Shown here: in pieces, positions 12,016 through 52,135 of the stretch | How positions within the stretch are numbered: position 1 is the first letter of the stretch | Layout of the letters: every line of letters begins with the position of its first letter | Assembly (NCBI GenBank): GCA_002403305.1 | Contig: DHHM01000016.1 | Span: forward strand, 122,490-186,489 | Origin: Bacteroidales bacterium UBA4772 | GTDB taxonomy: Bacteria > Bacteroidota > Bacteroidia > Bacteroidales > VadinHA17 | Reading direction: 5' to 3' | Length of the DNA: 64,000 bases | Notes under the pieces: generated by a model | Told to the model about the DNA's origin: nothing | Databases searched by the model: none | Seen by the model: the letters and a program-made list of their open reading frames with translations, nothing else | Translations under genes and position numbers: made by a program

Positions 12016-12032
12016 CTTATTGGTTAAAAAAA

Positions 12033-12050: not shown

Positions 12051-12056
12051 TTTCTA

Positions 12057-32018: not shown

Positions 32019-32279
32019 TTATGTTGAAAAGTATGGGGAGATGTTAATTAATTAACGTTCGTCTAAATAAATAATACTGTTTATCAGTTTATTTTTACGT
32101 TTAATCAAAACATTGAAACTCTTGCGGAAGGTTTCATGTTTAACTGGTCAAAGGGAAACAGAACATAATAGTTTTAGAAAAACTTCAATTATCGGATAAT
32201 AATATCCTTATATTTTCAGTTAAGTCATAGAAAATTAATCATAGCGAATAGTAATTATCAACCTTTAAAATTATCTCAG

Positions 32280-32783
32280 ATGAAAATGATTCTTTTGTTT
32301 TCAGTAATCATGATCGCGTTCACCGCAGGCAGCTTTGCACAGTCAAGTGATACAGAGCAGACGACAGCCACGGCTACCATTTTAGGTCCGCTTGCACTGA
32401 CCAAGGTTAGCGACATGGATTTTGGTACCATTGCCGTTACCGGTACCGCAGGAACTGTTGTGCTGGGCATCGATAACTCCAGGACAGCTGTTGGACCTGC
32501 ACTTGTTCCTCCTGCTGCCGGTGTTGCTGCATCATTTACCGTATCGGGAGAAGCCAGCCGGGCATACACCATTACCCTTCCTGCCAACGGTGACGTCACT
32601 CTTGTCAACGGGACGAATTCAATGGCGGCAAACGATTTTGTTCATAACGCTGGCGGTACTCCTGCATTGGACGGCACAGGTGCTGCTGCGTTTACCGTAG
32701 GAGCAACACTGTCAGTCGGCGCTGCCCAGGCAGCCGGAGTATATACGTCGGCAAACTTTCCCGTGACCATCAACTACAACTAG
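32280..32783 (+). CDS. Secreted DUF4402 / SCPU-like (archaic chaperone-usher pilin-like) subunit 1
   Basis: Signal peptide ending FAQ. 167 aa, Thr/Ala/Gly-rich. Has L.L....DMDFGTI near the N-terminus, SFTVSGE...YTITLP, FTVGATLSVGAAQAAGVYTS.F.VTINYN at the C-terminus, and no Cys. This layout matches what I recall for DUF4402. Confidence 0.65.
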   Translation: MKMILLFSVIMIAFTAGSFAQSSDTEQTTATATILGPLALTKVSDMDFGTIAVTGTAGTVVLGIDNSRTAVGPALVPPAAGVAASFTVSGEASRAYTITLPANGDVTLVNGTNSMAANDFVHNAGGTPALDGTGAAAFTVGATLSVGAAQAAGVYTSANFPVTINYN

Positions 32784-32812
32784 GAACTCCTTACTGCCCG
32801 AAACGGACATAG

Positions 32813-33346
32813 ATGAAAAGGCTCGGGATACGATCCATAAGCCTCATTACCTTATACCTGGTTTTTGCCTTTGCGGCGGAAGCCCAGCCGGCGGCTTCTT
32901 CCACTGTGACAGGGCATATAACTGCCGAGGTTATCTCCACGCTGACTGCCATAGAGACCACGCAGCTCAGTTTCGGCAGGTTTTCACCGGGGCCCCAGGG
33001 CGGTAAGTTAATTCTTACACCTGAAAGTTCCATTTCAGTTATGGGAAGCGTATGGCCCGGCAGCGGCACACACAGCGCTGCGAGCTTCTACGTCACCGGA
33101 GATCCGGGGGTGGCTTATACTGTAAGCCTGCCTTCGGATCCGGTTACCATAACTCACCTGGGATCGGCCAGAACCATGACGGTGGAAGAGTGGCGGTCGG
33201 TGCCGGAGGCAGAGCCGGGAGCCGGCGTGCTGGAAAACGGATCACAGGTGGTATATGTGGGGGCCACACTCAACGTGGGAACCCTGAATGATAATCCCGT
33301 AGGTGTCTATACGGGCACCTATAACATAACCTTCGAGTTCAACTGA
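32813..33346 (+). CDS. Secreted DUF4402 / SCPU-like subunit 2
   Basis: Paralogue of the previous gene: signal peptide ending AEAQ, QLSFGRF, SFYVTGDPGVAYTVSLP, VGATLNVGTLNDNPVGVYTGTYNITFEFN. Confidence 0.65.
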   Translation: MKRLGIRSISLITLYLVFAFAAEAQPAASSTVTGHITAEVISTLTAIETTQLSFGRFSPGPQGGKLILTPESSISVMGSVWPGSGTHSAASFYVTGDPGVAYTVSLPSDPVTITHLGSARTMTVEEWRSVPEAEPGAGVLENGSQVVYVGATLNVGTLNDNPVGVYTGTYNITFEFN

Positions 33347-33376
33347 CCGCGGAAAGAAATCTTAAATCCCGAAATA

Positions 33377-34222
33377 ATGACAAAGCTATCTATGCGGCTT
33401 TTTACGGCAGGCCTGATCCTACTTCAGGTCTTTTTTCCATTTATTGCAAGGGCACAGGGCGACCTTCTCGTCACCCCCAGACGGGTGGTTCTTGATGCCC
33501 GGCAGAGGTCGGTGGACCTGAGCCTGGCCAACATCGGAAATGACACGGCCACCTACAACATCTCGATCGTGCAGATCAGGATGACCGAAGAGGGTGCCTT
33601 TGAAACCATCACCGAACCTGATGCAGGACAGCAGTTTGCAAGTCCCTACCTGCGGTTCTTTCCCAGGTCAGTGACACTCAGCCCTGACGAAGTGCAGACA
33701 GTCAAGATCCAGATGGTACGGACCAGGGAGCTGCTGTCTGGTGAATACAGGTCGCATATCTATTTCAGGGCTGTGCCAAAGGAGAAGCCCCTCGGGGAAG
33801 AACCGCAGGTACAGCAGGATCCTTCAACCATCTCCATCAAGCTTGTCCCTGTCTTCGGGATAACCATCCCGGTCATAATAAGGGTGGGACAACCATCTGT
33901 AGATGTTTCTCTTACGGATCTCTCGCTGAACTTTGTCAATGACACTGTTCCCAGGTTTGGATTTAAATTCAACCGCGCAGGAGACTATTCTGTTTACGGT
34001 GATATCTCCGTTGACCATATATCACCCGGCGGCGTGACAACCCGTGTGGGCATTGCCAACGGTCTGGCGGTCTATACGCCCAACAGCGTCAGAAAATTTG
34101 AATTTAACCTTCAAAATGCTCCTGGCGTTGATTTCAGCACAGGCATACTGCGGGTTACCTTCTCTGCATCCTCCGATGTAAAACCTGAAAAATATGCTGA
34201 GGCAGAATTGAATTTGGACTGA
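33377..34222 (+). CDS. PapD-like two-domain periplasmic pilus chaperone
   Basis: Signal peptide ending ARAQ. LLVTPRRVVLD......V.L.L.N.G resembles the chaperone A1 strand with the anchoring Arg. FFPRSVTLSPDEVQTVKI and GEYRSHIYFRAVP resemble the F1/G1 strands. A second beta-sandwich follows. Located in a pilin-chaperone-usher context. Confidence 0.6.
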   Translation: MTKLSMRLFTAGLILLQVFFPFIARAQGDLLVTPRRVVLDARQRSVDLSLANIGNDTATYNISIVQIRMTEEGAFETITEPDAGQQFASPYLRFFPRSVTLSPDEVQTVKIQMVRTRELLSGEYRSHIYFRAVPKEKPLGEEPQVQQDPSTISIKLVPVFGITIPVIIRVGQPSVDVSLTDLSLNFVNDTVPRFGFKFNRAGDYSVYGDISVDHISPGGVTTRVGIANGLAVYTPNSVRKFEFNLQNAPGVDFSTGILRVTFSASSDVKPEKYAEAELNLD

Positions 34223-34275
34223 ATTTCAATAAGCGTTCTGTCTTTTAACATTCACTTTTTTGTTCTGAGAAAATA

Positions 34276-37200
34276 ATGAATAAACTATCGCCATGCAGTA
34301 AAGACTTATTAAGGACGTTGATTTTCAGCGCTGTACTTATCATCTTGTCGGGGCTGGACAACACAGCGTTGGGGCAGACAACATTAGCAACATGGAATTT
34401 CCCCAACAATCCGGATAATGCAATCTGCGATGGGGGGATTGCCGCAAATGCGGCAAAAACCATTTCTACAGTAGGGGGAACTTCTGCAATTGACTATTCC
34501 TACAGCGGGGCAAGCACAAACTGCGCATATGCTACATCATGGAATAGTGGCAGCGGATCAAAATACTGGTACATTAACATTGTTACCACGGGGTACTATA
34601 ATATAACCGTCTCATCTGCCCAGCGTGGACATGAACAGGGCTCAACAAGAGGCCCGAGAGATTTTAGACTTGAGTATAATGTTGGTGGAGGATGGGTTGC
34701 GGTATCCGGGGGCTCAATTACTGTCGCAGATAATTTCACAACAGGCCTATTAAATAATCTCGCCCTGCCTGCCGCATGTGACAATCAGGCTGCTCTTCAG
34801 CTTCGCTGGATAATGACCTCAAACACCTCAATAGACGGTCATACGGTAAGTGCTTCAGGTTATAACCAAATAGATAATATTGAAATAAACGGGAATCCTC
34901 CCGGCCTTTCTGTTACACCGACAAGTCTCGATTTTGGTTTTGTAGCCAGCGGTTCGACGTCATCCAACATGACCTATACACTTTCCGGTGCGGGGCTCTT
35001 CCCCTCCGCAGGCAATATTAACGTTGCGGCACCGTCCAACTTTGAGGTCTCATTAAGCTCAGGTTCCGGCTTTGCCTCATCAATTAATGTTCCTTTTACA
35101 TCGTCGACACTGGCTGCGACTACTATTTATGCCCGGTTTAGCCCGACAAATCCCGGTACAAATTATAGCGGCAATATTACAAACAGCGGGGGAGGTTCTG
35201 CCGTTAAAAATGTAGCAGTATCAGGCAATTCAATAGTTTCTTATTGTACTTCAAGCGGTAATACGACTTACCAGACAAGCATAACTTATGTAAATATCAA
35301 TACGATCAGCAACTCCAGCGCCAAACCTTCAGGATATAGTGATTACACATCGCTGGTTACCGATGTTATCAAGAGCAGCTCTTATAACCTGACCGTCAAC
35401 CTGAATACAGATGGCAACTATACCGTTTATGCAATGGCATGGATTGACTGGAACGGGAATGGAAGTTTTAATGATTCCGGAGAATCCTATAACCTTGGCA
35501 CTGCTGTCAACACAGCCAATGGTCCGACCAGCCTGAGCCCGCTAAGCATTACCGTTCCTGCCGGAGCCGTCACCGGCACCGTCAGGATGAGGGTTTCTGC
35601 CAGGTATGATGCATATCCTGCTTCCTGTGATACGGGGTTCGACGGCGAAGTTGAAGATTATACTCTGAATATTGCACCGCCCAGTTTAATTTATTATTCC
35701 CAAAATTCTGATCCGGCACTTCTTTCAAGCTGGAATACAAACAGAGCCGGAGGGGGTAGCAGTCCGGCAAGTTTTACGGCCAACAACCAGACATTTGTCA
35801 TTCAGGCTTCTAATTCCATGACAGCCGGCTCAGCCTGGAGCGTTTCGGGCAGCAACACAAAAGTAGAGATGGAAGGTGGAGCATCTCTTACCGCTAATTC
35901 AGCAATATCTCTTTCTGCAGCCACAACTTTTCAACTCGATAATGGGGCAACATACAATCATAATGTATCATCAAATACAGTGTGGTCTGGTATTGAAATT
36001 ATTGACCCGGGCTCAACGGTTGTATATGGCTTTGCCGGAGCACAGGATATATCAGCTCAGTCTTACGGAAATATCACTGTCAGTGGCGGGGGTACCAAAA
36101 CGATGCAGGGCAATATATCTGTTGCCGGAACCCTGAGCCTCAGCAATGGAAACCTCAGTCTCGGATCCGGGGCCTATGATCTTACAATTGGGACAGGGGC
36201 AACAATTACAACTTCCGGATCATTCAACAATACCCATATGATTGTGTGCGACGGAAGTGGAAGCCTTATTAAACTGGGAACCACTGCCTCTGCCTTTTCC
36301 GTTGTTTACCCGGTAGGAACCGGCACTTATTACACTCCTTTTGAAATTGCGGCTCTTACAGCTACCGTTACCGGAACAGGAAGCATCAGTGTCAGGACTG
36401 TTGCGGGTACGGCTCCGGGGCCTCCGGCCGCTGCCAGTACTGATCTGATGAAATACTGGAACATATCAACCACGGGTATAAGCGGGATATCCGCAAATAT
36501 AAGGCTGACATATATCAACCCCGGAGAAGTGGGATCCGGTGGTGATCAGACTAAGTACGTTCCTTATCTTTATTCCGGAGGCGTCTGGGCTCAACCGAGT
36601 TTTTACAGTGCAGCAGGAACAAATCCGATGACCGTATCGGGAACCTCAACTCTCAGCGGCCAGTGGACCGCACGGGAGGAGCCGGTCTATGGAACATACT
36701 ACTCTTACCAGTCGGGACCCTGGAACTCAGCAGGCACATGGACCAAGGATCCGTCAGGAACACTGTCTGTTAGCCCGGGAGTACCATCGGCAACAGACAG
36801 GGCCGTAATTCTTAATGGCCGTACGGTATCCACAACTGCAAATGGCGAAAACGTACTTTCTGTTCAGATCAATGATGGTGGAATTCTTGACCTTGGGACC
36901 TACACAACGCAAAACTTCACTGTTATACGTGGAGAAGGACTTGTACGATTGCAGACAAGCATCTTTCCTTCCGGCGACTGGAGCAATTTTGTAGCTGAAG
37001 GAGGGGGTACGGTGGAGTATTACAACACTTCAAATTTTACAGTTTCTCAGCTGTCATATAATAACCTGATAATAAATCTTTCATCCTCGGCCATAGTAGC
37101 AACGCTGACAGGTAATATGACCCTTAACGGGAACCTGACCATTACCAGCGGGAAGCTTCAGATTAATGACGGCTCCTCAACAGGACGGAATGTGACGGTG

Positions 37201-43200: not shown

Positions 43201-46200
43201 GCAAAGCTTCGTGTGGTGGAGTGGAACCCCTCATGGATCAACCGGGGCAACGGGAAAATAAGCGGCAATGCCCAGGAGGGTACCATAAGAACCAGTCCGG
43301 AGGTCAGCCTTTCCGGTGATCACCGGTTTTCCCTGGGCGTTGAAAGCCTGCCCACTGCAACCATAACAAGCGGAGCAGCAGGGATATGCGATGACGGATC
43401 CACTACAAGCATTTCAATAAACCTGACCGGAACAGCTCCATGGACCATCAAATACAAGATTAACGGAGCATATGAGACAACCATTTCAAATATTGGAACA
43501 TCACCATATACATTAGTTGTCTCCAATTCAATTCCGACGCTTGCCTCCGGAGGCCCCGGCCTCTATTCATTTTCCATCTCTTATATAAAAGATGCAACAG
43601 GCACAACGGGCATACGTGACTTTACAACCACCGGTGACATAACTTTATATGCGTCTCCCACACCGGCCATTTCCGGGCTTTCCACCACACCGGCCAACTC
43701 GTTGGAAACATACAGCACCATGGCGGTGGCAGGAGATACATACCTGTGGAGTGTAACAGGAGGTGTCATTCAAAGCGGGCAGGGGACAAATTCAATAGCA
43801 GTACTATGGGGCTCAGGTCCGGCAGGAAGCATCACCCTGACCGAAACCGTAACTATCGGCGGATGTAGTAAGATCACTCCTCCCTACAATGTTACAATTA
43901 CAGATATTCCGAATCCCCTGGTTACAGGGAACACCTCCGTTTGCCTGGGTTCTGCAGAAACATATTCAACACCGCTTGTCGGCAGTCATACTTATGCCTG
44001 GGTAGTTACCCGCGGGACATTTACCATTGGTGCTACAAACAATATTATAAATGTTACCTGGACATCTACAGGAGCCGGAGCGGTAAGCGTTACTGAAACA
44101 GGTGCCTCCCCGGTAGTAAACACACTCCCTGTTACAGTAAACCCTGTTCCTCCGGATAATAATGCTGTATCTGATCCCACTACATGCGCCAATGTGCCGG
44201 TGAATATCATCATTTCTGCAGCACCCGCAGGCATTTCCTATCAGCTTCGTCTGAACAGTGATAATTCTCCCGTCGGATCCCCGGTGAGCAGCATGGCCGG
44301 GGGTGATGTTTCCATACCGGTCACGCCGGCAGCTACCACTACATATAATATCTGGGCATCAAATGAGTATAGTTGCGGGGTTATGCTTACTGACCTTGCT
44401 GTAGTTACCGTGGTGAATGAGCAGATCTGGACAGGAGCAGCGGGAACAGACTGGAATGTCGCGGGAAACTGGTCCTGCAATATTGTCCCCACTCAGACAT
44501 TATCCGTTCAGATACCTGATGTGGCAAATAAACCGGTACTCAGTAACGGAGCAAATGGAGGCGTCAGCAATATTGTAATAGATAACGGAGCGTCACTGAC
44601 AATTACAGGTAACACAATCACTATTTCCGGAGATATAACAAGTAACGGAGGCCTTGATGCCTCAGCCGGCACTATTGAAATGAACGGGTCTGTTGCACAA
44701 CAGATCGGGGCCGGCGTTTTCAGCGGAAATACTATTCAGGGACTGATAATTGACAATTCTGCAGGAGTAACCCTTCAGGGGCCGCTTACGGTTACCGGAG
44801 TGGTATCTGTACAGAACGGAACCCTCTCGTCAGGCGGTAATCTAACCCTTGCCTCAACAGCTGCAGGAACTGCTCTCATAAACGGATCGGGCGCCGGGAC
44901 AGTGGCAGGCAATGTCACAATGCAGAGATACCTTGACCCGGGATTCGGATACAAATATTTCAGCTCACCCTTCCAGGCATCAACGGTAAGTGAGTTTGGA
45001 GATGATATGGACCTTACATACTCATTCCCACTATTATACCGGTTTGATGAGAACAGTGCCTATTCAGGATGGATTGGCTACGCAACCGGAACAAATATCC
45101 TTAATCCCATAGAGGGCTACGCCGTTAACTTCGGTGAACTGACAGATCCTAAAACAGTTGATGTCACCGGTATTGTCAATAATGGGAGCTACTCTGTTAA
45201 TCTCTATAATCACAATAACGAGTTTACCACCGGCTTTAACCTGGTTGGTAACCCATATCCGTCACCTGTTGACTGGGACGGACCGGGATGGACAAAAACG
45301 AATATTGATAACGCCCTTTATTTCTTCAGAGCCAGCACCACGGATCAGTACGGAGGTACTTACAGCAGCTATGTTAACGGGATTTCGAGCGACGGGTTTG
45401 CCTCAAATATAATTCCGTCTATGCAGGGTTTCTTTGTACATGTCTCTGACCTGACTTACCCTGTGACCGGCACGCTGGGGGTATCAAACAGCTCAAGGAT
45501 AAATAACCTGACAAATCCCTTCCTGAAGTCGGCCAGGGTGAATAATTATCGATTCCTGGTAAGGGCAACAGCCTCCTTTACCGATGACCAGACCTCAACC
45601 GATCCTCTGGTGATCTGTTTTGATAATAATGCGGAAAAAGAGTTTGACGGCGCTTATGACGCCCTGAAGCTGTTTAATACTGACATGATGGTAACCAATT
45701 TCTACTCGGTTCTTCCGTCACAAAAGAAACTTTCAATAAATGCATTGCCTGACCAGACAGATACGATATTGTCTATTCCTCTCGGTTTGACTGTTTATCG
45801 CGATGGTGAGGTAAAATTCAGTTTCAGGGATGTTGAGAATCTTCCCGTCGGGGAAAATATCTATTTCCGTGATGCAGTGACCGGTGCCAGCGTAAATCTT
45901 ATCGGAACCAGTGATTACAGGGTCGAGCTTAAACAGGGAGAATATCACGGCAGATTTTCACTGGCATTTGTCAAGAACACCACATCCGTGCCTGACCCCG
46001 TCGCAGCTGATGATCTGTTCCAGGCCTGGATGTCGGAAGGGATGGTAAAAGTCAGGATTGGTCATGTTGAAGGCGACAGGGGGATGATTACCCTTTACAA
46101 TTTGTCGGGTATGCAGGTCTGCTCCGAAACAGTGTATGAACCCGGTGAATATCATCTGAATATCAGATTGATGCAGGGGGTATACGTTATTACATATACG

Positions 46201-46245
46201 ACGGGCAACGTACAGCGAAGCATAAAGCTGGTACAGGGAAAATAA
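34276..46245 (+). CDS. Giant (3989 aa) secreted surface protein: N-terminal beta-sandwich domains, GEVED domain, four beta-helix supermodules, Ig/PKD-like array, T9SS C-terminal sorting domain
   Basis: A single uninterrupted 11.97-kb ORF with a signal peptide (...LDNTALGQ). Gly/Asn/Thr/Ser-rich beta-solenoid repeats run throughout, the GFDGEVEDY motif is present, and the C-terminal ~78 aa fit the Por/T9SS CTD pattern (see sub-features). Confidence 0.9.
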   Translation: MNKLSPCSKDLLRTLIFSAVLIILSGLDNTALGQTTLATWNFPNNPDNAICDGGIAANAAKTISTVGGTSAIDYSYSGASTNCAYATSWNSGSGSKYWYINIVTTGYYNITVSSAQRGHEQGSTRGPRDFRLEYNVGGGWVAVSGGSITVADNFTTGLLNNLALPAACDNQAALQLRWIMTSNTSIDGHTVSASGYNQIDNIEINGNPPGLSVTPTSLDFGFVASGSTSSNMTYTLSGAGLFPSAGNINVAAPSNFEVSLSSGSGFASSINVPFTSSTLAATTIYARFSPTNPGTNYSGNITNSGGGSAVKNVAVSGNSIVSYCTSSGNTTYQTSITYVNINTISNSSAKPSGYSDYTSLVTDVIKSSSYNLTVNLNTDGNYTVYAMAWIDWNGNGSFNDSGESYNLGTAVNTANGPTSLSPLSITVPAGAVTGTVRMRVSARYDAYPASCDTGFDGEVEDYTLNIAPPSLIYYSQNSDPALLSSWNTNRAGGGSSPASFTANNQTFVIQASNSMTAGSAWSVSGSNTKVEMEGGASLTANSAISLSAATTFQLDNGATYNHNVSSNTVWSGIEIIDPGSTVVYGFAGAQDISAQSYGNITVSGGGTKTMQGNISVAGTLSLSNGNLSLGSGAYDLTIGTGATITTSGSFNNTHMIVCDGSGSLIKLGTTASAFSVVYPVGTGTYYTPFEIAALTATVTGTGSISVRTVAGTAPGPPAAASTDLMKYWNISTTGISGISANIRLTYINPGEVGSGGDQTKYVPYLYSGGVWAQPSFYSAAGTNPMTVSGTSTLSGQWTAREEPVYGTYYSYQSGPWNSAGTWTKDPSGTLSVSPGVPSATDRAVILNGRTVSTTANGENVLSVQINDGGILDLGTYTTQNFTVIRGEGLVRLQTSIFPSGDWSNFVAEGGGTVEYYNTSNFTVSQLSYNNLIINLSSSAIVATLTGNMTLNGNLTITSGKLQINDGSSTGRNVTVAGNVDVSTSGSIGIGTGNANHRFTVNGDFTNEGVVRMTNQDAPSYTTTPSNGRSDLVFNNPNANQNLICNGQSDFYRIEIDKGIDKTYILNIDASNNTNFKLFGRSNLQSSPPSNDPPAIENPNALGLLAGTVRLGPNIVLPSLSGDAVYNIDLDAQLWLDGADVTFSAAASNSSIVVYGNLRVSNQATLNANGNQGIVMRDQSALIIESGVVTTDCIRTSYISGAHRGAFIMSGGILNIEGNTYNISGLNIYASFTLPYPDNVFKMTGGTINILSPTTITGGSGSNFSLILGSGSNNFYVTGGTINITVPTGRNAYINTTSPLWNLSFISTSATYRGQIQAYAGNSSPAIPAISARPLIIYNDLNVLDNAVFNANGSNVTIGHSFVIDPGAGYECGDNTTTFNGLAGQRFTNSGTVNNGTGLYNLTIADSSNTDIFSDNLIIRKDLIISNGSILNDVGHSISVAGNITNSGSHTSQASGAIILNGTVAQTLGGSGSGVFGNLTINKTAGTTIFTANQSVIGNLRLANGLIDAGTLNISLGSSSNIYDAITGTTANFSATKMIRLAGNSSDGGVTKTYGSIGAFLFPVGTASDYTPATIQFTAAPTEWGSVTVRPVAQAHPLLTSALALTYYWSVTSSGFSGVSAGSVSHTYQYVTSDITGTESNYIPGSYRPYAWTPVIDNSKVVDATNTILFGPVDYIDGDYTAGETAAFMSIKVFYSRQTGDWNDPATWSSTGVGGATDGDIPGAGNPVVIGDNTNNHTVTVPVGYNNITVGGLEISQGSTLDLQTTTGHNFGAIPDTRVTGTGRLRISSSGATATFPGGDFGNFLSGGGGIVEYYSTATMGATTFTLPATYLSGAATINLTAYNNLVTAPAAGKNIVLPNINLAVHDDFTLSGSGISQLNVLASTRVVTIDSNLVIGSGTLRYMNGNNTAQSLIVSGNVVINDGAVFDVNTSGSATNLLTIYGDLTNNGTFDMYKAATQVCNVTFAGNINKEINGAGAITDFNIIEVNKGNSRNTVLEVKSSVLTINTNLSTALLLTNGTFRLTSPIILNLTDAGSFTIPMTGALSANGGTINIGGASATNATDLFLDGRLEVLAGAVNIGTAGNNLNNDIEYSSGGTPEILVSGGTLYVNGQIRRVTTINTGSLSYTQSNDASVVTVAGRNPDNARAIFEILNSGSKFNMSGGTLNITGSFNNADYFDFYLVPDSSTVTGGNILFGSSVTPVNTVFSMATSTELYNLAIDDTSGSKTLDLKIYPLILNNLTINGNTVFRAKGLNVTIGGSLTNGNNTSGTGVSTGGYQPGNINQVTTFNGAGLCAITGTGSNLTNFANLTIDSDGTLLLSSNSNIRISSGLIISSGYLDDGGNNIFLMGNLINTAAHASSIAGGGIRLEGSQPQVISGNGEGIFGNITINNTTGISIVDRTIINGLLTFTGGAIYLDDYSLVLGTNASIGGVTDQTRMIILNGVISDAGVTKIFPSGASAFTFPIGVAGKYTPVSYNFTTNTNIGASITVEPVNYSHPLMDLPAGDELDYYWNVLSEGFVDAYTVDHGYSYDAGDVNGVEAEYVTGRFTAGNWSPVGGIDESSVNPVTHTITLLSRGYVDGEYTAGKSINFSNTFTMYSIKSGNWYGDNTWSVTDGGPPCGFDPNGNIVVIKPGHVVTLNNNSAYAYSVALNGALDAGITYYHNLGHVSGNGILKMTSTSQGIFVFPGGDFSGFVYTTGSTVEFFGDNQASLPAKPGNIYKPYQNVILSGSGKKTMPSEDLKILGNLIIRDASTLLSNELYNKKLIISGNWIDNNTSATGGFLPGKGGAYFYGTSPQIISITNGATTEAFYDLEINNVTGLTLSGAGNVNVSDKLILTRGIISTSVVNLLSISNTSEKAVENGGDDSFVSGPLQKRILAGRGFNFPIGDALGGAGGLRYGELILTGASVTGYYQAQYYNHNPLDDGYDPDNVTAPIDVVSSSEYWRVNGPALSTANITLRWDDQSGIIPVDASTRAKLRVVEWNPSWINRGNGKISGNAQEGTIRTSPEVSLSGDHRFSLGVESLPTATITSGAAGICDDGSTTSISINLTGTAPWTIKYKINGAYETTISNIGTSPYTLVVSNSIPTLASGGPGLYSFSISYIKDATGTTGIRDFTTTGDITLYASPTPAISGLSTTPANSLETYSTMAVAGDTYLWSVTGGVIQSGQGTNSIAVLWGSGPAGSITLTETVTIGGCSKITPPYNVTITDIPNPLVTGNTSVCLGSAETYSTPLVGSHTYAWVVTRGTFTIGATNNIINVTWTSTGAGAVSVTETGASPVVNTLPVTVNPVPPDNNAVSDPTTCANVPVNIIISAAPAGISYQLRLNSDNSPVGSPVSSMAGGDVSIPVTPAATTTYNIWASNEYSCGVMLTDLAVVTVVNEQIWTGAAGTDWNVAGNWSCNIVPTQTLSVQIPDVANKPVLSNGANGGVSNIVIDNGASLTITGNTITISGDITSNGGLDASAGTIEMNGSVAQQIGAGVFSGNTIQGLIIDNSAGVTLQGPLTVTGVVSVQNGTLSSGGNLTLASTAAGTALINGSGAGTVAGNVTMQRYLDPGFGYKYFSSPFQASTVSEFGDDMDLTYSFPLLYRFDENSAYSGWIGYATGTNILNPIEGYAVNFGELTDPKTVDVTGIVNNGSYSVNLYNHNNEFTTGFNLVGNPYPSPVDWDGPGWTKTNIDNALYFFRASTTDQYGGTYSSYVNGISSDGFASNIIPSMQGFFVHVSDLTYPVTGTLGVSNSSRINNLTNPFLKSARVNNYRFLVRATASFTDDQTSTDPLVICFDNNAEKEFDGAYDALKLFNTDMMVTNFYSVLPSQKKLSINALPDQTDTILSIPLGLTVYRDGEVKFSFRDVENLPVGENIYFRDAVTGASVNLIGTSDYRVELKQGEYHGRFSLAFVKNTTSVPDPVAADDLFQAWMSEGMVKVRIGHVEGDRGMITLYNLSGMQVCSETVYEPGEYHLNIRLMQGVYVITYTTGNVQRSIKLVQGK
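35242..35673 (+). other. GEVED domain within the giant protein
   Basis: YCTSSGNT...AWIDWNGNGSFND.GE...VRMRVSARY......C.TGFDGEVEDYTLNI. The terminal G(E/D)VEDY motif gives the family its name. Confidence 0.6.
35695..43342 (+). repeat. Four divergent tandem supermodules, each an entry motif YxS..SG.W....TW, then a beta-helix, then an FP(V/I)G...YTP beta-sandwich cap
   Basis: Entry motifs are at aa ~474 (YYSQNSDPALLSSWNT), 808 (YYSYQSGPWNSAGTW), 1693 (FYSRQTGDWNDPATW) and 2597 (MYSIKSGNWYGDNTW). Cap motifs are at aa 678 (YPVGTGTYYTP), 1561 (FPVGTASDYTP), 2463 (FPIGVAGKYTP) and 2885 (FPIGDALGG). The two long copies are 885 and 904 aa. The copies are recognisably similar at the protein level only. 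Confidence 0.7.
43343..44420 (+). other. Array of Ig/PKD-like beta-sandwich domains in the giant protein
   Basis: Repeated ~80-90 aa units with patterns such as YLWSVTGGVIQSGQGTNSIAVLWGSGPAGSITLTE and YAWVVTRGTFTIGATNNIINVTWTSTGAGAVSVTE, as seen in Cytophaga/Flavobacterium-type surface proteins. Confidence 0.5.
46009..46242 (+). other. T9SS (Por secretion system) C-terminal sorting domain
   Basis: The last 78 aa are DDLFQAWMSEGMVKVRIGHVEGDRGMITLYNLSGMQVCSETVYEPGEYHLNIRLMQGVYVITYTTGNVQRSIKLVQGK. This contains the v.lyn..G..v, l....l..GvY.v and k.vk pattern of type A CTDs. Confidence 0.75.
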
Positions 46246-46326
46246 AAGAGAACTCGCATGAGCAATATTTTACATAAGAAACTGGGGATCAAAATTAATG
46301 CAAGTGATGTCAGGCGGTTGATAAAT

Positions 46327-46845
46327 ATGGATATGCCAGGTGTAGTAAGGAAGGCAGTCATTGCAGCTAGCCTGCTTCTGGTGTTCGGATTTTTCACGGA
46401 AGTCATTGCTCAGCCGCTGCCGCCACGGCCGGTGATCATCACGGTGAATAGCTCCCAGCCACTGGCATTCGGAGCCTTCACTCCCGGTGCTGCCGGAGGT
46501 GCGGTCACAGTAACACCCGACGGAGGCACACGATGCTCATCAGGTACGATTATTCTCCTCAACATGGGTATGATATATACTCCTGCCATGTTCTACGTGA
46601 CGGCCAACCCCGGGACAGTCATCTCACTGCTCTCCGGGCCTCCATCGACCATCACCGGGAGCAACGGAGGCACGCTTACATTGCAGCCCGACGGCACATG
46701 GCCTGCTTCACCATTTGTTACCACGGTACCATATCAGCAGCAGACAACAGTGCTGGTGGGTGGGACGCTCACCGTCGGGACCATCGCCGCTAATCCCCCG
46801 GGCAGCTACAGCGGGACAATAGATGTAACCTTTGTCCAGGAATGA
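46327..46845 (+). CDS. Secreted DUF4402 / SCPU-like subunit 3
   Basis: PLAFGAFTPGAAGGAVTVTPDG, MFYVTANPGTVISL and VGGTLTVGTIAANPPGSYSGTIDVTFVQE parallel subunits 1 and 2. The ORF opens at ATG 46258, 12 nt after the giant gene stop. The ATG at 46327 gives a canonical signal peptide (MDMPGVVRKAVIAASLLLVFGFFTEVIAQ). Confidence 0.6.
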   Translation: MDMPGVVRKAVIAASLLLVFGFFTEVIAQPLPPRPVIITVNSSQPLAFGAFTPGAAGGAVTVTPDGGTRCSSGTIILLNMGMIYTPAMFYVTANPGTVISLLSGPPSTITGSNGGTLTLQPDGTWPASPFVTTVPYQQQTTVLVGGTLTVGTIAANPPGSYSGTIDVTFVQE

Positions 46846-46881
46846 ATCACTGATGACCTCCCGCGAAACGGATATGTAATT

Positions 46882-49800
46882 ATGACAGAAAGCAAGGCAT
46901 ATACCACGTTAATAAACAAAGGTGGTATGCCTGTGCTTAATTTACGGACTGCTATTGCAATGATGGTCCTGCTGCTTGTGTCAGTGACGGTGCCCGTTAC
47001 CGCCCAGGAAGAGCCGCAGTATGATGAGTTTCCTGTTTACGTCAGGGTGCCTTACATAGGCATCTCAGAAATCGATGCCGTCATTAAGGGAGAGGAGGTC
47101 TGGCTGTCACTCTCCGGTCTCTTTGATTTTCTGAAGATAAAAAATGTGATCTCTGACGACCTTGAGAACGTCAGCGGTTTCTTTATCAAACCTGATGAGA
47201 CATACTCCGTCGACAGGGTCAGCAACAGCATCGTCTATGGGGGCAGGACCTTCCAGCTTGCAGAGGGAGACATCATACGGTCAGAGACAAACCTATATCT
47301 CCGGTCAGACCGATACGGTCAGGTATTCGGCCTTGACTGCAACTTCAGCTTCAGGGACCTTACAGTCACCGTCGATACAAAGCTTGAGCTGCCTGCCATA
47401 CGTGAGATGAGGCAGGAGGAGATGAGAAGGAACATCACCCGCCTCAGAGGGGAGGTCAGGGTTGACACTACCATCGGCAGAAGCTATCCCGGATTCAGGT
47501 TCGGCATGGCCGACTGGTCCGTTTATGCCAGTGAGCAGCCCGGCGGCAGGTCCGAGGGAAGGTTCAATCTGGCGCTTGGCTCTGTCATCGCAGGGGGCGA
47601 GGCAACCGCTTCACTGACATATTATACGGCTACGGAGTTCAGCGAAAAACAGCAGTACTACATGTGGCGGCACGTAAACAACGACCGCACATGGCTGCGG
47701 CAGATAATGGCAGGAAAGATAACCACCCAGGCCACCTCCTCAATCTACAATCCGGTAGTGGGGGTGCAGTTTACCAACAGGCCCACCACCTTCAGGCGTT
47801 CGTTCGGAACATACACCCTGACTGACCGCACTGATCCGGGCTGGACTGTGGAGCTTTATGTGAACAATGTTCTTGTCGACTATGTAAAGGCCGATGCCTC
47901 CGGATTCTTCACCTTTGAGGTGCCACTGGTCTACGGCAATACCATGGTCAAACTTAAATTCTACGGTCCCTGGGGTGAGGAGAGGACACGGGAACAGAAC
48001 ATCAGCATACCCTATAATTTCCTGCCACAGAAGGAACTCGAATATACTGTGAGTGCAGGGATGGTTGAAGATTCGGCATGGAGCCGTTTTTCCAGGACGA
48101 CAGTACGTTACGGAGCCACCAGGTTCCTGACCCTGGGAGGGGGATTTGAGTATCTCTCTTCCGTTACCGGCGGTCCCCTGATGCCGTTCGCTGATGCCTC
48201 CGTGAGGGTTACCAGCAACCTTCTGCTGTCGGGTGAATACACCCACGGGGTACGCGCCAGGGGGACACTGGCCTATCGGCTTCCTTCAAACATCCGCCTT
48301 GACCTTGCCTATACGCGTTATGACAGGAATCAGACAGCCATTTCATACAACTATCTGGAAGAAAGAAAAGCCTCATTGTCTCTTCCTCTGAAGATTAAGA
48401 AAAAGACACTCTATTCAAGGCTCTCCTGGTATCAGATCGTCTTTCCCGGTTCAAAATATGCCACGGCTGAATGGCTGATGGCTACCTCATTCTCGCGTGT
48501 CAGTGCCAATATGACCACCTACGGGGTCTTTTCGGAATTCTTTGATCCGAACATCTACAGCAACCTCAGCCTGGGATTCCGTCTCCCGGGAAATTTCGTC
48601 ATCATGCCGCAGCTTCAGTACAACTATACCGGGAAGGAATTCCTTTCAACCCGTGTAAGCATGGAGAAGCGGGTCTTCGAAAAGGGATACCTGAACGGAT
48701 CGTATGAGTACAATTTCCGGAATAAGATCCACATTGCGGAGCTGGGTATCAGGTACGACTTTTCATTTGCGCAGGCGGGCATCTCTGCCCGTCAGGCCAA
48801 TTCAAACACCACACTGGTACAGTATGCACGAGGCAGCCTGATAAATGACCGCCAGACCTCATACCTGAAGGCAGACAACCGTACCAATGTTGGCAGGGGC
48901 GGCATCTCCGTCATTGCGTTTCTTGACCTGAATGCCAACGGCAGGCGCGATGCCGGAGAACCGAAAGCAGCAGGCATCAACCTCCGGTCAAACAGCGGCA
49001 GGATAGAGCGAAGCGAGAAAGACACCGTTATTCACATTCTTGGAATGGAGCCATATGTCAGGCATTTTATTGAGGTGGACGAGGGTAACTTCGACAACAT
49101 ATCGTGGCGGATACCCAATAAGTCAATAGCGGTGGTTGTGGATGCCAATATGCTCAAGCTGATTGAGATACCTGTCAACGTCTCCGGTGAAGCCTCGGGC
49201 ACCGTGACTGTCGTGGAGGATAGCCGCATTGCCGGGCTGAGCCGCATAATCGTAAATTTCACCGACAGTAATGGTACCCTGAAGGCTAAAACCATAACGG
49301 AGGAGGACGGATATTTCAGCTACTTCGGCCTGGAGCCGGGAGCCTATACGGTGCGTGTTGACACAGGACAGCTGAGAAGGCTGGGAATGACCTCCGTACC
49401 CGATTCACTGCTCTTCAGTATAATGACCAACCTGGAGGGCGACTATATCGAAGGACTTGACTTTACGCTCAGGAAGAAGGCTCCTGTGGTTGATACGGTG
49501 GCAGTTCCCGAACCTGTTATGGTTGCCGACACTGTCGCCGTTCCTGCCACTAAACTGTTGCCTGGCACCGACAGTGTTCCCGCCGCAGTGGCTGACACGG
49601 CTGTTGCTCTTATACCGACGCCGGAGAGGGTGGTAACCACTGACACATCATTCCTGGTGATACACGAGGTAACCCGCGAGCTGGTGACGATAACCGAAGA
49701 CTACTATGCCGTTCAGTTCGGGGCCTTCCGCAACAGGCTCTATGCCGAGATCATGAAACAGAAGGTGGAGGGCGCCCTTGACAAGAACGTGGAGCTCTTT

Positions 49801-50652
49801 GAGGAGGATGGCTTCTGGAAGGTACGCATAACAGGCTTTGACGACCGCGAGGATCTTGAAAAGTATATTCCTGTAATACACGGACAGGGTATTACGGAAA
49901 TCTGGGTTATCAGCAACAAGGCGGTGAAGGGAGAATGGATTACCACAGGCAGGGAGGACTCTCTTGCCGTGGTGAGAGAGACTGTCACCGAAAAACCGGC
50001 CATTCCAATGGTCATCTCGGGTAATACCCTGCAGCTTGGCGCCTTTGAAACGGCTGAAGAGACGGAGCCAATAAGCAACAGGCTGCTTGCTGCGGCGGAG
50101 AAGCTGGTAACGGTAAGACAGGATGAGGGCCTCTGGAAGGTGCAGATCAGTGGTTTTGAAGATACTACTGATATTCGCGAATTCATACCTCTGCTGCAGG
50201 AGCGGGGCTTCACTGACATATTGGTGCTTCACCAGACGGAAGAGGGGTTGGTGCCGGTGGTCCCGGTCGTGATTCCTGAGGCGGCTGAGGCTCCGGCAGA
50301 GCCCGGCATGAAAGAGATACCGGTACCGCAGGTGTTACCCGAACCGGCAGAGGCAGCACCGGAACAGCCTGTTTTTGAGGAAGAGATCGTGCCTCCGCCG
50401 CCTACGGCACCCCTGCCGAGATTCCTGTTGCATGCAGGCAACTATCGTAAGCTGTCTGACGCCGAGAGAGCAAAGAAGAAGATTGAAAGAAGGCTGAACC
50501 TGCCGGTGGAGATAATAGAGGACTGGGACAGCTACAGGGTGGTGGTGACCGGCTTCTTCACCAGGGAGGAGACCTATCCTTACTACCCGGAGCTTGCAGG
50601 TCTTGGATTCTCCGATATCTTTGTCTACGAGAAACCTTTGATCGACAGATAA
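46882..50652 (+). CDS. Usher-like outer-membrane protein fused to an SdrD/Cna-B-like module and three C-terminal SPOR domains
   Basis: Signal peptide (alternative start at 46927). An N-terminal domain with V.V...G..EIDAVIKGEEVWLSLSGLFDFL resembles usher NTDs. Long Tyr/Gly/Arg-rich beta-strand segments follow. A plug-like segment GWTVELYVNNVLVDYVKADASGFFTFEVPLVYGNTMVKLKFYGPWGEERT resembles the usher middle domain. FLDLNANGRRDAGEP...EEDGYFSYFGLEPGAYTVRV is SdrD-B/CarboxypepD_reg-like. SPOR repeats complete the protein (see next feature). Confidence 0.6.
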   Translation: MTESKAYTTLINKGGMPVLNLRTAIAMMVLLLVSVTVPVTAQEEPQYDEFPVYVRVPYIGISEIDAVIKGEEVWLSLSGLFDFLKIKNVISDDLENVSGFFIKPDETYSVDRVSNSIVYGGRTFQLAEGDIIRSETNLYLRSDRYGQVFGLDCNFSFRDLTVTVDTKLELPAIREMRQEEMRRNITRLRGEVRVDTTIGRSYPGFRFGMADWSVYASEQPGGRSEGRFNLALGSVIAGGEATASLTYYTATEFSEKQQYYMWRHVNNDRTWLRQIMAGKITTQATSSIYNPVVGVQFTNRPTTFRRSFGTYTLTDRTDPGWTVELYVNNVLVDYVKADASGFFTFEVPLVYGNTMVKLKFYGPWGEERTREQNISIPYNFLPQKELEYTVSAGMVEDSAWSRFSRTTVRYGATRFLTLGGGFEYLSSVTGGPLMPFADASVRVTSNLLLSGEYTHGVRARGTLAYRLPSNIRLDLAYTRYDRNQTAISYNYLEERKASLSLPLKIKKKTLYSRLSWYQIVFPGSKYATAEWLMATSFSRVSANMTTYGVFSEFFDPNIYSNLSLGFRLPGNFVIMPQLQYNYTGKEFLSTRVSMEKRVFEKGYLNGSYEYNFRNKIHIAELGIRYDFSFAQAGISARQANSNTTLVQYARGSLINDRQTSYLKADNRTNVGRGGISVIAFLDLNANGRRDAGEPKAAGINLRSNSGRIERSEKDTVIHILGMEPYVRHFIEVDEGNFDNISWRIPNKSIAVVVDANMLKLIEIPVNVSGEASGTVTVVEDSRIAGLSRIIVNFTDSNGTLKAKTITEEDGYFSYFGLEPGAYTVRVDTGQLRRLGMTSVPDSLLFSIMTNLEGDYIEGLDFTLRKKAPVVDTVAVPEPVMVADTVAVPATKLLPGTDSVPAAVADTAVALIPTPERVVTTDTSFLVIHEVTRELVTITEDYYAVQFGAFRNRLYAEIMKQKVEGALDKNVELFEEDGFWKVRITGFDDREDLEKYIPVIHGQGITEIWVISNKAVKGEWITTGREDSLAVVRETVTEKPAIPMVISGNTLQLGAFETAEETEPISNRLLAAAEKLVTVRQDEGLWKVQISGFEDTTDIREFIPLLQERGFTDILVLHQTEEGLVPVVPVVIPEAAEAPAEPGMKEIPVPQVLPEPAEAAPEQPVFEEEIVPPPPTAPLPRFLLHAGNYRKLSDAERAKKKIERRLNLPVEIIEDWDSYRVVVTGFFTREETYPYYPELAGLGFSDIFVYEKPLIDR
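49702..50633 (+). repeat. Three SPOR (septal peptidoglycan-binding) domains separated by Pro/Ala/Glu/Val-rich linkers
   Basis: SPOR1 (~49702-49915): YYAVQFGAFRNRLYAE...DGFWKVRITGFDDREDLEKY. SPOR2 (~50023-50232): LQLGAFETAEE...EGLWKVQISGFEDTTDIREF. SPOR3 (~50419-50633): FLLHAGNYRKLSDAERAK...WDSYRVVVTGFFTREETYPY. All fit the Q.GAF....A......l.......y.V..G.f....eA pattern. Confidence 0.75.
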
Positions 50653-51648: not shown

Positions 51649-52053
51649 CTATTTATTTTTGACCTTTCCTCTTGAGATCTCGATGCCGGCCGGAAAAAGG
51701 ACATCGCCGGCCTCCTCGGCAGTGATGAATATCTCACTGAATTCAAAGGCGGTCAGCGAGCTCAGTGAAGTTGTCCTGGCGTTCTTTACGTCAAGCTGCC
51801 CCAGGTTTTTGACTTCACCGTCTGTTGTGACTACCCAGACCACATAGGTGGTTTTCCCGGGGGCAATCCTGCCCGCTTCCGCCAGGTTCCTGGCCGTGAC
51901 CGTCACCTCGTAATTGTCGTGCTTATCCTGCTTCACGGAGGCAGAGATATCTGCCGCAGGAGCGACGGCCGATACAGGGAAGCTCACCGATGATGAACAC
52001 GATGCTGACAGCATCATGATCACTGCAACTGAAACCAATTGAAAGAACTTCAT
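51649..52053 (-). CDS. Small lipoprotein, function unknown
   Basis: Lipobox MLSASCSS. 134 aa, beta-rich. No recognisable motif. Confidence 0.5.
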   Translation of the reverse strand: MKFFQLVSVAVIMMLSASCSSSVSFPVSAVAPAADISASVKQDKHDNYEVTVTARNLAEAGRIAPGKTTYVVWVVTTDGEVKNLGQLDVKNARTTSLSSLTAFEFSEIFITAEEAGDVLFPAGIEISRGKVKNK

Positions 52054-52135
52054 TTTTTAATTAATTAGATTGTTGATAAAAATATTCTTTACTGACAAAT
52101 CTGGTCGTGTTAAAAAACTTCCCGGGTTATCCAAG

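Follow-up and report, generated by a model that had tools for sequence, protein, structure and literature searches.

A conserved Bacteroidales locus combining chaperone-usher-type fibre genes with the gene of a giant protein carrying a T9SS sorting domain

Organization and conservation of the locus

The window (the whole 64-kb stretch of Bacteroidales DNA that was analysed) contains six consecutive genes on the forward strand, which encode three small DUF4402 subunits (D1, D2 and D3), a PapD-like chaperone, a giant protein with a T9SS C-terminal sorting domain (CTD) and an usher-like outer-membrane protein. An ORF check of the window returned all six at exactly the coordinates listed here, together with the main features found within and upstream of them:

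32019..32279, no strand assigned: upstream AT-rich region of 261 bp, presumed promoter region (composition)
32280..32783, forward strand: D1, DUF4402 subunit of 167 aa, candidate major pilin (Pfam PF14352)
32813..33346, forward strand: D2, second DUF4402 subunit, 177 aa (Pfam PF14352)
33377..34222, forward strand: PapD-like periplasmic chaperone, 281 aa, two Ig-like domains (AF2 model and Foldseek)
34276..46245, forward strand: giant surface protein, 3989 aa, predicted to be T9SS-sorted (ORF, orthologue comparison)
44878..46233, forward strand: RemA/RemZ-like conserved module including the CTD, giant residues ~3535-3986 (19-orthologue profile against PDB sequences)
46078..46245, forward strand: T9SS type A C-terminal sorting domain, giant residues 3935-3989 (TIGR04183, PF18962)
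46258..46845, forward strand: D3, third DUF4402 subunit, candidate tip pilin (Pfam PF14352)
46882..50652, forward strand: 1256-aa usher-like outer-membrane protein that ends in a peptidoglycan-binding tail (AF2 model and Foldseek)
47020..49485, forward strand: usher core, residues ~47-868 (secondary-structure map, Pfam, Polaromonas alignment)
49702..50631, forward strand: three SPOR repeats, residues ~941-1010, 1049-1118 and 1181-1250 (Pfam SPOR, mutual similarity)

The gaps between the genes are, in order, 29, 30, 53, 12 and 36 nt, and the upstream region has a GC content of 26% against 48% for the window, in agreement with the original prediction of six same-strand genes spaced by 12-53 nt behind an AT-rich region of about 260 bp. 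A motif search of 32019-32279 found neither the Bacteroidetes TAnnTTTG (-7) box nor a sigma-54 -24/-12 motif, the only matches being sigma-70-like and weak; terminator-like sites are weak as well and are located within ORFs. On its flanks the locus is bordered by housekeeping genes (a hemN-like gene, a gene for a GATase_7 protein and nfo), as expected for the chromosomal, non-mobile setting that had been proposed for it. No tRNA was found across the whole window, no integrase or transposase among the flanking ORFs examined, and no T9SS genes among the ORFs scanned within the 64 kb. Because synteny is conserved and tRNA, integrase and transposase genes are lacking in these searches, a one-off insertion or mobile element was ruled out.

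The order D1-D2-chaperone-CTD protein-D3-usher is kept in 68 of the 69 informative related species-level loci, which confirms that the arrangement is not due to chance; D1 is the first gene of every related locus. This subtype occurs in at least 455 species genomes, and the chaperone family as a whole comprises 2333 clusters at 50% identity. A CTD protein fills the middle slot in other Bacteroidota orders as well, which together with the 68 loci clearly contradicts the one-off insertion that had been named as a refuting case: Pedobacter cryoconitis and loci L090, L094 and L095 have one there, followed by a D3-type pilin and an usher, and so does a Chitinophagaceae MAG, whose D3 is a fragment of 81 aa. 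In L089 and L091 the RemA-like protein heads the locus instead of occupying the middle slot, and L093 has the fibre machine, including the SPOR tail, with a divergent D3 and without a CTD protein. Homologous pilin-chaperone-usher sets without a CTD protein are also encoded by Polaromonas and Prosthecochloris, and for this reason the fibre skeleton is, as judged from gene content, a putative pilus machine in its own right.

Products of the fibre-type genes

The 281-aa product is modelled by AF2 as two Ig domains (pLDDT 71). When this model was compared with the PDB by Foldseek, the list was dominated by PapD-like chaperones (CsuC, Caf1M, CfaA, CupB2, FimC and PapD; E 2e-9 to 6e-7), with CsuC among the best matches and a probability of 1.0. 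TM-scores are only 0.34-0.45 and, as they are low for both the chaperone and the usher (0.23-0.45 together), the fold assignments rest on Foldseek E-values and on the specificity of the hit lists. Profile searches stay below threshold, with no PapD match at threshold in Pfam or NCBIfam, a window copy that scores 15.9 bits against PapD_N and sub-threshold PapD_N matches in 14 of 42 orthologues; a search of the sequence against PDB sequences gave no meaningful match. Relatives of the protein are named ‘PapD’ or ‘molecular chaperone’ by JGI and NCBI. Two arginines, R36 (‘PRRVV’) and R131 (‘YFRAVP’), are invariant in 42 orthologues, and among 35 distant homologues R36 is still invariant and R131 is only the consensus residue; judged by the PapD/FimC motifs rather than by a structural superposition, they may be the counterparts of PapD R8 and K112, the basic cleft residues to which the subunit C-terminus is anchored. 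With this, the predicted PapD-like chaperone is supported at the level of the structural model, and a periplasmic role is assigned to it on that footing.

A comparable situation is found for the last gene of the locus. The AF2 model of residues 1-900 of its 1256-aa product (pLDDT 63) has ushers as 17 of its 19 best Foldseek matches, and the top 12 are all FimD or PapC (E about 6.5e-19 to 9e-12), while LptD, porins and other outer-membrane barrels appear only at E >= 7e-6; the TM-scores to known ushers are low (0.23-0.39). As we interpret the model's secondary-structure map, an N-terminal domain (47-165) precedes a barrel (209-654) interrupted by a plug-like sandwich (310-376), and two C-terminal beta-sandwiches resembling SdrD_B and CarboxypepD_reg follow (673-865), Pfam placing SdrD_B and CarboxypepD_reg at residues 778-829. 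The core aligns end to end with an 893-aa homologue from Polaromonas (E 2e-30 over residues 34-868), whose chaperone is likewise homologous (35% identity, E 1e-48). None of 41 usher orthologues matches the Pfam profiles Usher, PapC_N or PapC_C, even at E <= 10, the window protein has no Usher match at threshold in Pfam or NCBIfam, and its sequence has no meaningful match among PDB sequences. Hence it is the model, with FimD and PapC on top, that bears out the predicted usher-like protein and supports its description as an usher-type barrel. The predicted SPOR region is recognized by Pfam (67.7 bits, cut-off 21, in two stretches) and resolves into three mutually similar segments (E 8e-16, 8e-11 and 2e-5); SPOR is present in 38 of the 41 orthologues, and annotation pipelines call the usher of this family ‘SPOR domain protein’ or ‘FtsN’.

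All three small subunits match DUF4402 (PF14352) as predicted, with Pfam scores of 95, 90 and 70 bits for D1, D2 and D3, respectively. The label ‘SCPU-like’, also applied to them, was not borne out, as none of 35 DUF4402 proteins matches Pfam SCPU (PF05229) at E <= 10; neither D1 nor the DUF4402 profile has a meaningful match among PDB sequences. The predicted cleavage sites of the subunits read A|Q, without a lipobox cysteine. In alignment A4, D1 and D2 carry N-terminal extensions of 17-19 residues with an alternating pattern: that of D1 (17 residues, containing TATATIL) follows the signal peptide and precedes a DUF4402 match spanning residues 38-166, and that of D2 reads TVTGHITAEVIS. D2 forms an orthologous group of its own in this alignment, and the C-terminal ends of the two proteins are ...TINYN in D1 and ...ITFEFN in D2. 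D3 has a 12-column gap at the position of the extension; its mature N-terminus, QPLPPRPVI, consists of nine proline-rich residues without a donor-strand extension, its DUF4402 match begins at residue 61 and its last residues are ...TFVQE. In 11 of 21 related loci the CTD gene and the D3 ORF share 4 nt, the stop of the former overlapping the start of the latter, and for the window copy a true start codon downstream of 46258 is possible. The D3 type defined by QxxPPRP...TFIQE was found only in loci with a RemA-like protein. D1 is likely the bulk subunit and D2 likely an adaptor, and D3 looks like a tip subunit lacking a donor strand.

The giant protein and its sorting signal

The giant consists of a signal peptide, a hypervariable N-terminal part of ~3400 aa, a conserved C-terminal module and the CTD. 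Conservation among its orthologues is confined to the last ~560-600 aa; their size is lineage-specific, from a minimal form of ~580 aa up to >3900 aa, and their domain content varies between close relatives. A Pfam scan of the giant places a GEVED domain at residues 386-465 and PKD_6 around residues 3130-3190, both in the variable part, and gives no lectin-type match. Two supermodules of ~900 aa (809-1693 and 1694-2597) share 31% identity with each other and have no Pfam match, and residues 1-3389 gave nothing against PDB sequences. The giant had further been labelled a beta-helix protein; this label gained no profile match, and hydrophobic autocorrelation showed weak peaks only, with no clear periodicity.

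At the C-terminus, a profile of 19 orthologues (A3) aligns over its positions 142-593 with residues 981-1434 of RemA (8gl6_D; E 8e-24) and also matches residues 582-1112 of RemZ (8gl8_D; E 1e-19), a homology that covers the last ~450 aa of the giant, CTD included. All 19 orthologues match TIGR04183 (best E 2e-7) and 14 of the 19 match PF18962; in the window copy TIGR04183 scores 21.5 bits, under the cut-off of 23 and in register with the end of the model. The lysine K3984 (A3 K595) is invariant in the 19 sequences and, as read from the printed alignment, aligns at RemZ K1109/K1110, K1110 being reported to contact PorV (PMC10994853). The sorting domain initially assigned to the giant is upheld by the orthologues and by the RemA/RemZ homology, and the sequence comparisons support its placement as a RemA/RemZ-family type A T9SS cargo, the signal being present and export by this route being probable. 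No DUF4402 domain is recognized in the conserved module (hhalign probability 0.5%), on which ground a classical tip adhesin ending in a pilin domain was rejected.

A composite apparatus, its alternatives and known systems

We give slightly better than even credence to the reading that a single operon encodes a composite surface adhesion apparatus, whose parts would travel by two outer-membrane routes and become physically coupled. D1, D2 and D3 would be exported by Sec and held by the periplasmic chaperone, and the usher-type barrel, tied to peptidoglycan by its three periplasmic SPOR domains, would polymerize them into a fibre. Since D3 is without an N-terminal donor strand, it would be confined to the distal tip and would probably initiate assembly, with D1 forming the bulk of the fibre and D2 serving as adaptor. 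The giant would leave the cell via the SprA/PorV translocon by means of its CTD, its hypervariable N-terminal ~3400 aa providing the binding surface and the conserved ~450-aa pre-CTD module, together with the CTD, a constant handle. Translational coupling may supply adhesin and tip pilin in matched amounts, the conserved module would dock on D3 or on the fibre at the surface, and the fibre would then serve as a stalk, anchored in the wall, that carries an adhesin of a size no usher pore could pass. A narrower version, possible and offered tentatively, is that of a ‘split tip adhesin’, in which a T9SS-delivered RemA-like protein of 580 to ~4000 aa docks via its C-terminal module on D3, the tip of a peptidoglycan-anchored DUF4402 stalk. 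The fibre machine of L093, existing as it does without a CTD protein, counts against coupling.

This same locus, along with Polaromonas and Prosthecochloris, lends weight to the view that the fibre is a surface structure of its own and the T9SS-anchored adhesin another, driven by a common promoter on account of their shared role in attachment and never making contact. RemA/RemZ-type substrates of Flavobacterium have no known pilus partner (PMC10994853), and in L089/L091 the RemA-like gene lies outside the middle slot, which also fits such independence. We nevertheless consider mere co-regulation rather unlikely: it needs no interleaving of the kind seen here, where in several Bacteroidota orders the CTD gene is flanked within the machine by the chaperone gene on one side and D3-usher on the other, its stop overlaps the D3 start in about half of the loci compared (11/21) and the D3 sequence type goes along with the presence of a RemA-like protein.

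It is improbable, in our judgement, that the usher-like barrel and D3 have been repurposed as a wall-tethered anchor in the outer membrane for the T9SS cargo, in the way PorP/SprF-like barrels pair with type B CTD proteins, with D1 and D2 building at most a short stub. Such an anchor would suit the SPOR domains, which make the barrel a fixed point, and the CTD gene, which always directly precedes D3 and the usher; cognate outer-membrane barrels beside T9SS substrate genes are moreover a known theme (PMC10202324). However, the CTD of the giant is of type A, the chaperone and D1 and D2 with their putative donor strands are all kept, with a chaperone identity of 59-94% across 80 species, and the same trio is shared by Polaromonas, of the Betaproteobacteria, and by Prosthecochloris, of the Chlorobi, T9SS being described as a Bacteroidota system (PMC10202324). 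The absence of CTD proteins from these homologous loci argues equally against the giant itself being a tip adhesin exported by the usher, with a C-terminal domain that merely resembles a T9SS signal. An adhesin gene may occur at this position in chaperone-usher operons, and the window CTD scores just under the curated cut-off, but no pilin domain is recognized in the conserved module, the CTD recurs in every one of the 19 orthologues and homology to proven T9SS substrates is strong, down to the lysine aligned with RemZ, so that this last reading is very improbable.

As far as is known, chaperone-usher pili have been characterized mainly in Proteobacteria, and the characterized pili of Bacteroidota are of type V. 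The locus reveals a large unannotated chaperone-usher family, which in Bacteroidota has captured a T9SS cargo gene, and the hypervariable giant makes the locus stand out as a surface-diversification hotspot among environmental Bacteroidales. If the products of the operon co-assemble, they would form, to our knowledge, the first organelle built by two outer-membrane secretion systems, and a possible answer would be at hand to the question of how certain T9SS adhesins are retained at the cell surface; if the ‘split tip adhesin’ holds, it would allow Bacteroidota to equip a pilus with binding domains that are very large and diversify quickly. As Pedobacter cryoconitis is a cultured carrier, the question is open to experiment. 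Literature searches found no mention of DUF4402 and no chaperone-usher system paired with T9SS cargo in this way, in agreement with the original view that the composition is undescribed, and the pairing is at least a variant without a published description that we could find, possibly more.

Among known systems, type V pili (FimA/Mfa) are surface fibres of the same phylum. Their pilins are lipoproteins polymerized by protease-mediated strand exchange, with no chaperone or usher known, whereas the locus combines predicted A|Q cleavage sites lacking the lipobox cysteine with both a chaperone and an usher, and is therefore not of this type. A functional link to T9SS is known for them: gingipains, which are T9SS substrates, process type V pilins (PMC10202324).

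Closer in architecture are the archaic (sigma-type) pili, represented by Acinetobacter Csu (CsuA/B-A-B-C-D-E), which share a two-Ig chaperone, an usher-type barrel with N-terminal domain, plug and C-terminal sandwiches, and several small beta-rich subunits with N-terminal extensions, one subunit, as the tip subunit, being without. They differ in that the subunits described here belong to DUF4402 and not to SCPU, the usher escapes the Pfam Usher/PapC profiles and carries three SPOR domains, the candidate tip subunit has a single domain without an adhesin domain, and a T9SS cargo gene lies inside the operon. Of the Csu/Mcu-type skeleton originally proposed, the chaperone and usher folds stand and membership by SCPU and Usher profiles does not, which leaves the affiliation as a resemblance. 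The loci of Polaromonas sp. E5S (plasmid pE5SP1) and Prosthecochloris share homologous chaperone, usher core and DUF4402 subunits, and lack the CTD protein, the SPOR tail and the D3-type pilin with QxxPPRP...TFIQE; these DUF4402-chaperone-usher systems are themselves uncharacterized.

For the giant, the comparison leads to Flavobacterium johnsoniae, in which RemA is a gliding adhesin; neither RemA nor RemZ is known to us to need a pilus. Both are proven type A T9SS substrates in Flavobacterium (PMC10994853), homologous to the giant over the last ~450 aa, including sorting domain and lysine, and equally endowed with a large variable adhesin-like N-terminal part. In contrast, the N-terminal 3400 aa of the giant are unrelated to theirs and hypervariable, with no lectin domain detected, and its gene is embedded in a pilus operon beside that of a putatively wall-tethered usher, an arrangement suggestive of an adhesin that stays in place instead of moving.

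Six genes on one strand and their surroundings

ORF calling placed the six genes of the locus exactly where the original prediction had them, all on the forward strand.

Features of the window (coordinates, strand, description)
29596-30504, -, DUF8429/DUF8428 protein, within the left flank
32280-32783, +, D1, DUF4402 subunit
32813-33346, +, D2, DUF4402 subunit
33377-34222, +, chaperone (281 aa)
34276-46245, +, giant protein (3989 aa)
36700-42066, +, supermodules of the giant (residues 809-2597), by mutual similarity
46258-46845, +, D3, DUF4402 subunit
46882-50652, +, usher (1256 aa)
50616-50623, +, Bacteroidetes-type -7 box TAnnTTTG (TATCTTTG), within the 3' end of the usher gene
51649-53233, -, baeRF_family3 (bacterial archaeo-eukaryotic release-factor-like) protein and adjacent small protein, just 3' of nfo

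The genes are separated by gaps of 29, 30, 53, 12 and 36 nt and are preceded by an intergenic region of 261 bp (32019-32279) with a GC content of 26%, against 48% window-wide. No convincing terminator was found between the six genes, and thus they are likely to form one operon. Region 32019-32279 contains neither a Bacteroidetes-type -7 box nor a sigma-54 motif. The start of nfo is about 45 nt past the box at 50616-50623, which suggests that nfo has a promoter of its own.

Housekeeping genes flank the locus. The left-hand ones encode a HemN-like radical SAM protein, the DUF8429/8428 protein and a GATase_7 protein, and the right-hand one is nfo; polA, uvrC, mnmG and similar genes lie elsewhere, and the whole window is devoid of tRNA genes. 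The left flank hemN - DUF8429 - GATase_7 is common to about half of the related loci. On the other side, the baeRF_family3 protein is adjoined by a small protein with a sub-threshold match to the anti-sigma model RskA_C (26.3 bits, cut-off 29.4).

Chaperone, usher and DUF4402 subunits

The sole sequence-profile signal in the chaperone is a sub-threshold PapD_N match (15.9 bits), the same model being matched by 14 of 42 orthologues. Its AF2 model (pLDDT 71) folds into two beta-sandwich domains and, when compared with the PDB by Foldseek, retrieves mostly PapD-like chaperones, including Caf1M, CfaA, YadV, CupB2, FimC and PapD, as well as CsuC from the archaic Csu system at E 2e-9 to 4e-9. The list also holds a few other two-Ig proteins, with Enterococcus WxLIP (9i25_C) at rank 1. 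Because the hits are this specific, the protein is probably a PapD-like chaperone, as had been proposed, albeit on a model of modest confidence and with modest TM-scores (0.34-0.45). The motifs 'PRRVV' and 'YFRAVP' each hold an arginine (R36 and R131, respectively) that is invariant in 42/42 orthologues, and the two may be the equivalents of PapD R8 and K112. Relatives carry the names 'PapD' or 'molecular chaperone' at JGI and NCBI.

No usher family member matches Pfam Usher, PapC_N or PapC_C; in the databases, the family goes under the names 'SPOR domain-containing protein' or 'FtsN'. For residues 1-900, an AF2 model of low confidence (pLDDT 63) was obtained, but its 12 best matches in the PDB are without exception FimD or PapC ushers (E 6.5e-19 to 9e-12), and ushers make up 17 of the top 19, the next barrel class, LptD and porins, following from E 7e-6. 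The secondary-structure map opens with an N-terminal domain rich in beta strands (47-165). Barrel strands then extend over residues 209-654, broken by a six-strand sandwich (310-376) at the place expected for the plug, and two C-terminal sandwiches follow (673-865), the second of which matches SdrD_B and CarboxypepD_reg. As read here, this map fits an usher, and the predicted usher-like outer-membrane protein is probably of usher fold, even though model confidence and TM-scores are low. Beyond the barrel, the protein ends in three SPOR repeats (approximately 941-1010, 1049-1118 and 1181-1250). Both termini are periplasmic in solved usher structures; therefore, this tail appears well placed for peptidoglycan binding.

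All three small proteins match Pfam DUF4402 above the cut-off (95, 90 and 70 bits), so this half of the earlier 'DUF4402/SCPU-like' label stands. As for the other half, none of 35 DUF4402 family members matches Pfam SCPU, even at E <= 10, and sequence searches with the DUF4402 profile found no solved structure; thus, 'SCPU-like' denotes resemblance, not membership. When aligned, these 35 sequences fall into three orthologous groups. After a predicted A|Q signal cleavage, D1 carries a 17-residue extension of alternating pattern (SATATATATIV type), and its C-terminus is ...TVNYN; D2 has an extension of 19 residues (SATGHITAEVI type) and the C-terminus ...ITFDFN. D3, which ends in ...TFVQE, has only about nine proline-rich residues (QxxPPRP) ahead of its first domain strand and lacks an extension that could serve as donor strand. 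In chaperone-usher fibres, which assemble by donor-strand exchange, the distal tip subunit is the one without a donor strand, and D3 may for this reason be the tip or initiator pilin, with D1 as putative bulk subunit and D2 as putative adaptor.

The giant protein and its distribution

Within its first 3400 residues, the giant has GEVED (residues 386-465) and PKD_6 as its only recognised domains. Its middle consists of tandem supermodules of about 900 aa (31% identity between residues 809-1693 and 1694-2597, E 1e-70). A G-W-x(n)-W motif stands at the start of each supermodule and of the conserved C-terminal module, and is common to RemA as well. As for the earlier 'beta-helix' label, a candidate reading, the supermodules gave no Pfam match and hydrophobic autocorrelation showed weak peaks only. 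Conservation among orthologues is confined to the last 560-600 aa or so (44-70% identity), length and content being variable N-terminal to it. A profile of this module from 19 loci matches RemA of Flavobacterium johnsoniae over its C-terminal ~450 aa (E 8e-24) and RemZ over ~530 aa (E 1e-19); both are type A T9SS substrates whose sorting domains have been observed bound within the SprA-PorV translocon (PMC10994853). The T9SS sorting domain TIGR04183 is just below its cut-off in the window copy (21.5 bits, cut-off 23), in register with the protein end, and is found in 19/19 orthologues (best E 2e-7), 14 of which also match PF18962; these matches support the C-terminal sorting signal originally read from the sequence. 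Five residues from the end, the invariant lysine K3984 aligns at RemZ K1109/K1110, K1110 being reported in contact with PorV (PMC10994853).

Relatives of the chaperone are numerous at E <= 0.001, with 4125 in a 90%-identity protein collection and 2333 clusters in a 50%-identity representative set, and 455 genomes encode one when a single genome per GTDB species is scanned. The best 80 of these 455 are all uncultured Bacteroidales MAGs (chaperone identity 59-94%), and their loci were annotated by ORF calling and blastp. Gene order is kept: of 69 loci with 1.5 kb or more of sequence downstream of the chaperone, 68 have a giant-like ORF directly after it, and D3 and the usher come next wherever the end of this gene is visible. 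The middle region spans 689-2768 aa in 21 complete cases and more than 3300 aa in many others, and minimal forms of the protein (~580 aa) amount to no more than the conserved module. The stop of the middle gene overlaps the start of the D3 ORF by 4 nt in 11 of 21 loci. Carriers of the locus include GCA_032942435.1 and Microflora Danica MAGs. About half of the loci have the flanks of the window, and these shared flanks indicate that the locus is inherited vertically. One MAG (CAZFIF01) has two copies, each on its own contig, whose middle proteins differ greatly (32% and 58% identity to the giant of the window); this could represent a paralogous second locus or a strain mix.

More distant contexts were found with a profile of divergent chaperones.

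Distant loci (D, DUF4402 subunit; CTD, type A T9SS C-terminal sorting domain)
L087, Pedobacter cryoconitis GCA_014207135.1: D - D - chaperone - 410 aa - 468 aa (PATR) - 581 aa - D3 - usher - D
L088, Chitinophagaceae MAG: D - chaperone - 387 aa - 581 aa (CTD/RemA-like, middle slot) - D3 fragment (81 aa) - usher (873 aa)
L090, L094, L095: order as in the window, with a CTD/RemA-like protein of 2717, 1703 and 1488 aa in the middle slot
L089, L091: 1121 aa - 164 aa - (D173 + D169) x3 - chaperone - D3 - usher
L093 (8749-14632): D - D - chaperone - divergent D3 - usher with SPOR (1077 aa)
L086, Polaromonas sp. E5S plasmid pE5SP1 (Betaproteobacteria): D - hyp - D - chaperone - usher (893 aa)
L092, Prosthecochloris (Chlorobi): D - chaperone - usher (907 aa) - three small ORFs

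The Pedobacter locus lies at JACHCC010000007.1 304965-325819. Its 581-aa protein shares 44% identity with giant residues 3434-3985 and has Por_Secre_tail at 23.5 bits; the usher there has one weak SPOR. The middle slot of this locus (10872-13549) holds two extra genes before the CTD protein: the 468-aa product has PATR repeats, and the 410-aa product, a PTL_trimer protein in precomputed annotation that our Pfam scan did not reproduce, ends in ...WTIGYNYN as D1 pilins do and may be an usher substrate. In L089 (5067-9904) and L091 (5093-9904), the RemA-like 1121-aa protein heads the locus and none occupies the middle slot; the pilin pair is in tandem triplicate 5' of the chaperone. A CTD/RemA-like protein is absent from the L093, Polaromonas and Prosthecochloris loci, and the Polaromonas usher has no SPOR. 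The D3 of L093 is without the PPRP motif and ends in ...ITCNFQ, and sigma-54-type response regulators flank L093 and L095. The chaperones of Polaromonas and the window share 35% identity (E 1e-48), and the Polaromonas usher aligns across residues 34-868 of the window usher (E 2e-30). Thus, the pilin-chaperone-usher skeleton is an old, widespread, uncharacterised family. In Bacteroidota, the phylum with T9SS, it has repeatedly retained a gene for RemA-like T9SS cargo next to one particular kind of putative tip pilin.

Possible mechanism and relation to known systems

The usher would polymerise D1, D2 and D3 by donor-strand exchange, with D3 at the tip, and the giant would exit via T9SS. Giant and fibre would function together, most simply by docking of the RemA-like module on D3 or the fibre, so that a wall-anchored fibre would display an adhesin that is very large and diversifies rapidly. 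The chance that the locus encodes such a truly composite two-pathway organelle is substantial, though below even. Two independent structures, merely co-regulated, are a rather doubtful reading of the same operon. It is improbable that usher and D3 have been repurposed as a fixed anchor for T9SS cargo, for which the PorP/SprF partners of type B substrates (PMC10202324) would offer an analogy. Export of the giant through the usher is highly improbable, given the presence of TIGR04183 in every orthologue and the RemA and RemZ matches of the conserved module. This module, moreover, shows no similarity to DUF4402 (hhalign probability 0.5%), and the giant was therefore rejected as a classical two-domain usher-exported adhesin.

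In the literature searched, no mention of DUF4402 was found, nor any description of a system joining chaperone-usher machinery with T9SS cargo in Bacteroidetes, in agreement with the earlier claim that no system of such composition had been described. T9SS has a known but indirect connection to pili in Bacteroidota, where gingipains process type V pilins (PMC10202324). In kind, the locus would be a chaperone-usher system, and it would differ from those known in an usher that is undetectable by sequence and bears a SPOR tail, in subunits that are DUF4402 proteins, and in a T9SS cargo gene embedded in the operon.
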